NCBI GenBank assembly: GCA_031425655.1
Contig: JANPJS010000161.1
Location: forward strand, 1-23,877
DNA length: 23,877 bases
Direction: 5' to 3'
From: Abditibacteriaceae bacterium
GTDB taxonomy: Bacteria > Armatimonadota > Abditibacteriia > Abditibacteriales > Abditibacteriaceae
This document shows, in pieces, positions 22,478-23,868 of the stretch. The notes under the pieces were generated by a model. It saw only the letters and a program-made list of their open reading frames with translations. It was not told the DNA's origin and did no database searches. The first letter of the stretch is position 1. Each line of letters starts with the position of its first letter. The translations under genes were made by a program, and so were the position numbers.

Positions 22478-22555
22478 GCCCTCAGGGCTTTGAGTGTGGC
22501 AGACGGAGGTTTGAAACCTCCGGCATCCGGCTTTGCCAAGTGTCCATGCGGACAC
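22478..22555. repeat. Cluster of short REP-like palindromes
   Basis: gccctcagggc, cggaggtttgaaacctccg (22504-22522) and gtgtccatgcggacac (22540-22555). The layout resembles 23632-23686. Confidence 0.55.
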
Positions 22556-22805
22556 AGCCGTGCGTCTATTGATGATGGCGAACGCCACCGCCAGTGCTTC
22601 TGCCAGCAGCGTAACGTTGGATTTCACCGGCGAAGTGCCCGAAGGCGACTTCGCGGTCACCGTGAACGGCGTGGCAACGCCCATTCAAAGCGTCGAACGC
22701 GATAATTACAGCGTCACGCTTTTGCTTCCCGACGGCGTGATGCCAATTGGCGATGCCGTGCGCGTAACTTGGAACGGCGGCGCGATGCAAATCGCTGCCG
22801 AATAA
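22533..22805 (+). pseudogene. Small beta-rich (Ig-like) ORF, probably an orphaned C-terminal domain of a secreted protein
   Basis: ATASASASSVTLDFTG...FAVTVNG...SVTLLLPDG...GDAVRVTW has protein-like composition. There is no RBS or signal peptide, the 5' end lies in repeat DNA, and a strong terminator follows. Confidence 0.5.
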
Positions 22806-22822: not shown

Positions 22823-22864
22823 GCAACAGGTCGGCGTGAAATTCACGCCGACCTGTTGCTTTTT
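22823..22864 (+). terminator. Intrinsic terminator hairpin between convergent ORFs
   Basis: gcaacaggtcggcgtgaa-a-ttcacgccgacctgttgc followed by ttttt. Confidence 0.85.
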
Positions 22865-22883: not shown

Positions 22884-23246
22884 TCAGCTTTTGGGTTTTT
22901 GGGGTTTCGGCATTAAGGCTTTGTAGCCGCCGCCGTTGTCTTTGTTGAAGACCGTGACGATCTTATAGAGAGACGTTTTGCCGGAGTCGTAGACTACCGC
23001 AGCGCTTTTGGTTGCTGTGTTCGCTTTGGCGCTTTTGACGCCTGCGATTTTGGTCAGAGCCGCTTCCACACGGGGAGCGCAGCCAGTCGGTCAGTGCATG
23101 CCCTCGACCGTAAGAAGAACGTTCTTGACGTTCTTTTGTGTAGCGGACGAAGCCGGTGTGCTGCCGCTTTGCGCCGGCCTATTCAAGCCGGCGATGGCGA
23201 TAGCTGCTGTTGCCAGCAAAAGACCGCCGATGTGCATCGTTTTCAT
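22884..23246 (-). CDS. Secreted heavy-metal-associated (HMA; MerP/CopZ-like) protein with in-frame TGA at codon 52, candidate selenoprotein (120 aa)
   Basis: AAGGAGG RBS (23251-23257) and ATG at 23246. Translation: MKTMHIGGLLLATAAIAIAGLNRPAQSGSTPASSATQKNVKNVLLTVEGMH[TGA]PTGCAPRVEAALTKIAGVKSAKANTATKSAAVVYDSGKTSLYKIVTVFNKDNGGGYKALMPKPQKPKS*. The TGA (23091-23093) replaces the first Cys of the GMxC..C motif. Confidence 0.85.
23058..23084 (-). promoter_or_regulatory. Putative bacterial SECIS hairpin
   Basis: mRNA GGC-UG-CGCU-CC-CC-GUGU-GG-A-AGCG-GCU starts 6 nt after UGA. The apical loop starts with G, 19 nt after UGA. Folded by eye. Confidence 0.55.
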
Positions 23247-23336
23247 GTTTCCTCCTTAGACTTTGCGAATGCCGCGTCTCGCGGCTATCTTCAGGTTACC
23301 AGAGCGCGCTTTGCGTGCCTAATTCGGCACATCCAA

Positions 23337-23543
23337 GACGTCGTCTGAGAATAATCCTGAGTTGAACCGCTTTTCAATAGGACGCGGAGCTTCGCTTTCC
23401 TGCCCAGAGGGCGCCCGAAACGGCTTTGAAGGCGCGGTTTTACCGAAAAAATCAGCGAGAATCCGCGCACAACATCCGCGAAGCGAAGCTCCTCGTCCTA
23501 TTGAAAAGTCTTTGGCGTTAAGATGTGATGAATTCTCAAACAG
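23337..23543. mobile_element. MITE copy 2 (same family as 18236-18453), with degenerate termini and core in the opposite orientation
   Basis: Same-orientation flanks (gtctgagaat..aatcctgagttga.ccgc / aaagtctt..gaattctca.acag). Inner IR at 23372-23397 / 23481-23506. Confidence 0.85.
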
Positions 23544-23868
23544 TAGTCTGAAAAGTCAGGGGCGGGGCAAAGCAAAATGGTTTGTCATTCTGAGCTTGCG
23601 AAGAATCTATTAACCCAAGTTGCTACCTATGGCCCGGCGATTGAAATCGCGGGCAACCAAACAGCGAAGTCCGCCTTCGCGGACTAAAAACAAAGATTTT
23701 AGTCGCCGTAGGGCGACTTTGCCGCTGGGTTGCCGCGAATTTATTCGCCAGGCTTGATGGGTAGCAACTTGGGTTATTACGATTTTCAATTGAGAGTAGA
23801 TTCTTCGCAAGCTCAGAATGACAAAGCTCTGACTTTTTGGCTCGATTCCGTCTTTCGAGACTGATTCT
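23544..23868. repeat. Nested (Russian-doll) palindromic repeat array
   Basis: A perfect 29-bp IR (23581-23609 / 23797-23825) encloses a perfect 17-bp IR (23611-23627 / 23760-23776), which encloses four hairpins (23632-23753). Outer aaaagtcag/ctgactttt. Confidence 0.85.

Follow-up and report, generated by a model that had tools for sequence, protein, structure and literature searches.

The copper chaperones of the CopZ/Atx1 type are known by their fold and their GMxC motif; CopZ itself is cytoplasmic and has a CxxC site. MerP (TIGR02052; PDB 1osd and 1afi) is a periplasmic Hg(II)-binding protein with an export signal and one HMA domain, again with a CxxC site. Selenocysteine (Sec, U) has been described in this setting too, as the original prediction noted: Table 1 of a 2026 catalogue of 119 selenoprotein families (PMC13188914) includes the UxxU protein NF041115, a metal-binding (seleno)protein listed as a 'putative mercuric reductase', a UxxC cation-transporting ATPase (TIGR01525) and a C/SxxU 'putative mercuric transport protein', and NF045683 is a MerT/CopZ fusion-like selenoprotein. 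Here we describe a gene in a 23,877-nucleotide stretch of DNA from an Abditibacteriaceae bacterium (the window) that very probably encodes an exported selenoprotein of the metal-binding type with Sec in an unusually wide metal site.

The gene lies on the minus strand, running from 23246 to 22884, and the plus-strand frame at the same place is non-coding (Table 1). It has 120 codons, of which codon 52 is the only internal TGA, in the setting LTVEGMH-TGA-PTGC-APRVEAAL. The strong ribosome-binding site and the continuous HMA frame broken only at the first metal ligand had been predicted and both are present: the read-through protein scores 40.8 bits against Pfam HMA (PF00403, cut-off 24.8) over residues 45-97. 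The frames on either side of the TGA are intact, in agreement with the claim that the gene shows no further decay. An ORF caller reports it as two pieces, an N-terminal one of 51 aa and a C-terminal one of 61 aa that starts at GTG 23069; the second is the 61-aa stub noticed at the outset.

Table 1. Features of the locus, numbered by position in the window.
Feature	Position	Strand	Remarks
Predicted selenoprotein gene, 120 aa, Sec52	22884..23246	-	stop TGA at 22886-22884; orthologue stops match
Shine-Dalgarno TAAGGAGG	23251..23258	-	4 nt 5' of ATG; orthologues also preceded by GGAGG
In-frame TGA, predicted selenocysteine 52, first ligand	23091..23093	-	kept in relatives
Cys56, second ligand	23079..23081	-	two-Sec relatives have TGA at the same position
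Predicted export signal, residues 1 to ~27	23166..23246	-	hydrophobicity; relatives' hydrophobic N-termini by inspection
HMA domain, residues 40-111, ferredoxin-like MerP/CopZ fold	22914..23129	-	Pfam, AlphaFold2, Foldseek
Sigma-70-like match, weak, 9/12	23348..23377	-	2 found against 0.7 expected, not evidence
Putative SECIS hairpin, GUGU loop 19 nt after UGA	23055..23079	-	consensus fold of four orthologues; weak by energy
17-bp hairpin between convergent frames	22823..22859	.	z -7.8; T-tail on plus strand

An AlphaFold2 model built with 15 relatives has a pLDDT of 85-95 over the domain, and its top Foldseek match is MerP (1osd; TM 0.88 by target, rmsd 1.5). When the protein is aligned to solved HMA domains the TGA falls on the first Cys, and one residue is inserted before the second, so that the site reads GMH-U-PTG-C rather than CxxC. 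The three-residue spacer had been called non-canonical, and it is indeed a trait of the family described below; it is not unique, since CxxxC occurs in 73 of the 462 HMA motifs of the top representatives (P0008-P0157), mostly in large multi-HMA proteins. In line with the predicted signal peptide, the N-terminus has a basic start and a hydrophobic stretch (11-residue Kyte-Doolittle maximum 2.61), and an export-type start is a predicted trait of the family, full-length members beginning, by inspection, with a hydrophobic export segment. Export of the protein is highly likely. Several full-length members carry what we take, also by inspection, to be a lipoprotein-type Cys or twin arginines.

The three congeneric genomes each carry an orthologue with 50-54% identity, the same TGA (not TGC or TGT) and a terminal stop at the equivalent position. 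In a survey of 401 genomes from the phylum, we found the U-P-x-G-C form in six (G000-G003, G025 and G096) and a two-Sec form, U-P-x-G-U, in seven (G047, G072, G084, G107, G118, G293 and G385), the latter corresponding to eight of 16 pattern matches, one of which is a partial second copy. The whole domain is conserved among relatives at 27-54% identity. Within the window's family we found the gene in genus g1 only; it was found neither in the 21 of the family's 27 genomes that are without a full selA match nor in two that have one. A selA match was found in all 13 carrier genomes versus 218 of the 401 overall, with a patchy distribution in the window's family, but the association gives modest support because the 13 carriers belong to six families and kin are not independent. 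The selA gene of G003 is broken by stops and frameshifts, possibly through an assembly error.

Members of the family also occur elsewhere. Ten of 17 metagenome matches to a pattern that required TGA are family genes, and the one pattern match in viral contigs is not an HMA protein. A profile search of 5.8 billion proteins, in which the best 8000 candidates were scored, gave 44 matches. Ten are stubs that stop exactly at GMH, 16 are second halves that begin just past the site, and the remaining 18 are ordinary CxxC proteins. The expectation that standard pipelines would truncate or miss the gene is realised in the databases, which carry it as two halves; the labels of such fragments include Abditibacteriales, Armatimonadetes, Candidatus Binatia, Deltaproteobacteria and Acidoferrales, and one Binatia pair was deposited as the consecutive genes MGD0947709.1 and MGD0947710.1. 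A Cys-only C-P-x-G-C form was found neither among those 44 matches from the best 8000 candidates nor among 115 matches for the MerT fusion of G096. At the DNA level, a Cys-form pattern gave 50 matches in the 401 genomes, five of them known genes; among 39 of the others, a set without the six TGG matches, the G096 gene was the only HMA member, and all 18 TGC/TGT matches were non-HMA. Other searches were less informative. Scanning the genome collection with the read-through protein returned only six ordinary CxxC HMA loci, since the peptide pattern assumes Cys codons; a single-sequence protein search with the window protein gave one unrelated match; phmmer on the representatives was swamped by multi-HMA proteins; and a loose double-TGA pattern in six genomes gave chance matches only. 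In a 72-column tree the two-Sec forms group with G096 (95/86) and the CxxxC domains from large multi-HMA proteins cluster separately, while the rest of the family lacks a resolved order and the UxxxC forms are not resolved as one clade. Two domain architectures were observed in addition: a member in G025 (L062, 2446-2928) and one at L070 have a duplicated HMA domain whose first copy is without ligands, and the two-Sec member of G385 (L178, 1320-1982) has an extra N-terminal domain that matches nothing in Pfam and contains CxxC and C-x4-H motifs.

Insertion of Sec at UGA52, as originally proposed, is very likely given a complete machinery, a conserved TGA and a divergent contig that keeps it. 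The genome encodes selA (549 bits), selB (356), selD (364) and a canonical tRNA-Sec (76 bits), all above curated cut-offs; selD itself has an in-frame TGA and adjoins the tRNA-Sec gene. Two AhpC/TSA genes, described below, likewise have an in-frame TGA and add to the case for Sec. Decoding of UGA by other tRNAs does occur, and excerpts of PMC7609411 describe the selC* tRNA-Cys as having U73, a GCA or UCA anticodon and an 8/4 structure. Reading of the present UGA as Cys by such a tRNA, which had been kept as an alternative, or as Trp, is nevertheless very improbable: the only UCA tRNA called at full score by ARAGORN has an 8-bp acceptor stem, a 5-bp T stem (8/5) and G73, and matches Rfam tRNA-Sec, whereas the other four UCA calls are below threshold. 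TGA is moreover the terminal stop of 1247 of the 3104 frames of at least 300 codons in the genome, which shows that it has not been reassigned, and the presence of selA in every carrier also speaks against Cys or Trp. A nonsense mutation, a split gene or a sequencing error would agree with the two separate small genes seen in database annotation, yet we find this hardly credible. It is already contradicted by the conservation data, for the TGA is shared at ~30-50% identity across six families and metagenomes, and in the two-Sec relatives the second TGA falls exactly on the second ligand; the undamaged reading frame on both sides points the same way. A contig from run X1, perhaps the source sample, shows 0 differences over the gene, and one from run X8 differs at 31 of 448 nt, none of them listed between 23026 and 23081, and retains the TGA. 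Neither contig has TGC, and assembly error is excluded by the two together.

The original prediction placed a hairpin with a G-first apical loop directly after the UGA, and this was upheld in part. The G-first GUGU form is the fold on which the orthologues agree, but in the window the hairpin is not more stable than shuffled sequences (z -0.61 to +1.28 in four windows of sequence) and its lowest-energy loop is CCGUGU, the GUGU form lying 1.1 kcal/mol higher. The bacterial SECIS consensus, as worded in excerpts of PMC13188914, is a loop of 3-9 nt with G in the first two places, 16-37 nt from the UGA and at or below -7.5 kcal/mol; in our own implementation the window hairpin (-4.4 kcal/mol) falls short of this standard and those of the congeners (-8.7 to -10.6) are within it, although randomised codons often pass. 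Of 40 synonymous randomisations of the window hairpin, 35 were as good or better, and RNAalifold detected no shared fold across 16 single-Sec regions. Codons 58-64 (23075-23055) are, however, identical in four species, and there 7/7 degenerate codons are identical versus 11/39 elsewhere (Fisher p 0.0006, for a region chosen after looking). It is mainly this silent-site conservation that supports a role for the hairpin as a putative SECIS, weak as it is by folding. The hairpin that follows the UGA of selD (L018, 121-180) has a CCC loop, not a G-first one, so the SECIS elements of this genome need not follow the consensus.

A second hairpin, with a GGUC loop 23 nt after the second codon of the site, is present in the seven two-Sec genes and in G096. 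All 48 cells are paired and three of the six pairs show compensatory change on both sides; the covariation score was reached by 0 of 500 shuffles, which leave relatedness uncontrolled, and slid controls pair at 17-69%. Pairing is only 61% in the single-Sec regions, and the window sequence keeps the 5' arm and not the 3' arm.

The gene stands alone, flanked by repeated elements on its upstream side and, downstream, by a strong hairpin whose T-tail on the plus strand makes it a better terminator for the plus-strand neighbour; it is possibly a terminator for both convergent frames. That neighbour, a small convergent frame at 22533-22805 (+), resembles SWM repeats weakly, at a score below cut-off, and is perhaps what remains of a gene. 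As had been stated, the window genes that were scanned include no mer genes; they are unrelated (GH127, NUDIX, rhomboid, histidine kinase, helicase and lyase). In the genome, which is 97% complete, there is no merT match and no merA above cut-off. It has its own CopZ-like gene (C175) and ATPase-sized HMA genes. The neighbouring genes of the congeners differ from each other and include no metal genes. Metal context was found at the loci of five relatives and at none of the other loci examined: the G096 relative is a MerT-HMA fusion, that of G293 adjoins an ArsR/SmtB gene and a MerT-HMA gene, in G047 and G072 the gene comes after a two-component pair that best matches the heavy-metal models TIGR01386/01387, below cut-off, and in G385 a broken MerR lies downstream. 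Some features of the surrounding DNA were noted in their own right. Nested inverted repeats at 23352-23508 and 23581-23825 (162 blast matches on 62 contigs and 333 on 124, respectively) are REP- or MITE-like genome-wide elements and probably end the contig. Near-identical frames recur every 630 nt at 1169-2932, which suggests that a repetitive gene for a surface protein extends beyond the window. Clusters of tRNA genes with duplicated isoacceptors lie at contig ends or in arrays on contigs C61, C317 and C217 of G000.

Our searches also brought up other candidate selenoproteins. Two AhpC/TSA-family genes of G000 have an in-frame TGA followed by a hairpin, one at C297:4932-5333 (-) in the setting FTGG-U-ANQ and one at C65:19161-19541 (-) in the setting GEF-U-PTT. 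A Cys/TGA scan of the genome against its own proteome gave mostly shadow-frame noise and recovered one Prx-like gene. Exported HMA proteins with a GMT-U-xx-C site, found in G037 (L057, 891-1304) and G030 (L058, 957-1532), genomes with selA and tRNA-Sec, are apparently separate from the U-P-x-G family. The MerT-type database proteins P0241, P0274 and P0302 end exactly at GMx and are possibly further HMA selenoproteins cut at UGA.

What might such a protein do? Selenolates have a higher affinity for soft metals. In the circuit that we propose, SelB and Sec-tRNA(UCA) would decode UGA52 with the aid of the small hairpin in codons 57-64, the protein would be exported, and its MerP-like domain would present the His-Sec-Pro-Thr-Gly-Cys loop outside the cytoplasm. 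There the loop would bind soft metal ions, most likely Cu(I), Ag(I) or Hg(II), through the selenolate and the thiolate, and the protein could buffer them in the periplasm or at the surface, or act as a chaperone that hands them to transporters. We consider metal binding to be probably the main function, and it is somewhat likely that the gene product is a stand-alone selenoprotein acting on soft metals outside the cytoplasm in just this way. Of the predicted exported seleno-metallochaperone or scavenger, it is the Sec that is supported, by the machinery and the conserved TGA; the metal binding remains the inferred part. If the compartment is oxidising, Sec and Cys could join in a selenylsulfide, a form that binds no metal, which counts against the metal reading, as do the lack of a merT match and of a merA above cut-off in the genome and the lack of metal genes at most loci.

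The main rival is a redox role, in which the HMA fold would be a scaffold for a U-x3-C selenylsulfide or a U-x3-U diselenide engaged in electron exchange or oxidant buffering outside the cytoplasm. In excerpts of PMC13188914 bacterial selenoproteins are thought to be mostly redox proteins; the spacer is wider than usual and constant as P-x-G, a Cys-only form did not turn up in our searches, and metal neighbours occur at just five of the loci examined. Such a role is unlikely all the same, since the GM[H/T]-ligand motif and the MerP fold are fully kept and since the G096 fusion has its U-P-x-G-C domain where its nearest full-length relatives have a CxxC HMA domain. A small exported protein, a stand-alone gene and a weak hairpin would also fit a selenium store or switch, with full-length protein made only under ample selenium supply and the 51-aa stub at other times; the conservation of the entire domain, and the poor store that one or two Se per protein would presumably be, make this improbable. 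To return to metal binding, a bolder version of it seems doubtful but worth stating: the family may be Sec-obligate exported 'metal sponges' that trap Hg, Ag or Cu at the surface of the cell with no need of mer/cop operons, with a U-P-x-G-U/C loop that works only with selenium, as the lack of any sulfur-only form among our searches would suggest, and with two-Sec members decoding two UGAs four codons apart by means of two adjacent hairpins. If this is true, those members provide a natural system in which to study tandem Sec insertion by bacteria; in any event they offer a testable case of how SelB handles two UGAs at that spacing.

In comparison with the known systems, the protein and its relatives score below the cut-off of every full-length NCBIfam model. 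No UxxxC or UxxxU HMA protein is present in the whole of Table 1 of the 119-family catalogue (PMC13188914), and a full-text literature search, with Haft and Tolstoy 2025 (PMC12013261) and BSepDB Table S2 outside the comparison, found no UxxxC, UxxxU or UPXGC selenoprotein, nor any CXXXC with an HMA domain and copper. The exported UxxxC/UxxxU form is likewise without description in excerpts of the Haft and Gwadz preprint, PMC1976440, PMC9312934, BSepDB and PMC11672702. MerP, the best structural match and a family to which one relative is tied by its MerT fusion, differs in its CxxC site and its mer operon, and the window protein reaches 36.5 bits against the TIGR02052 cut-off of 92.55. NF041115 is one of its two best NCBIfam matches and shares an HMA-like domain and Sec at ligand positions, but that 74-position model has a two-residue spacer and gives the window protein, with UxxxC, 41.1 bits (cut-off 95) and the two-Sec relatives 38-50. 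NF045683 has Sec in a MerT/HMA setting; the window protein, which is without MerT, scores 25.9 bits against a cut-off of 375, and the G096 fusion 79.7. The TIGR01525 ATPase shares the order of Sec then Cys but is a large membrane protein with a two-residue spacer, whereas ours is a free exported domain. CopZ is represented in this genome by a gene of its own. Judged by sequence, the protein belongs to the HMA superfamily but to none of the named families tested, and it may work like MerP or CopZ. With it comes a further predicted selenoprotein family, one whose genes are cut in half by annotation pipelines and would go unnamed in searches that start from known families. The UxxC and UxxU HMA selenoproteins were known; the exported UxxxC/UxxxU form, with predicted one- and two-selenium members, appears to be new, and within one 70-residue fold there is now a natural series (CxxC, UxxC, UxxxC and UxxxU) through which the effects of selenium and of spacing on soft-metal affinity can be compared.
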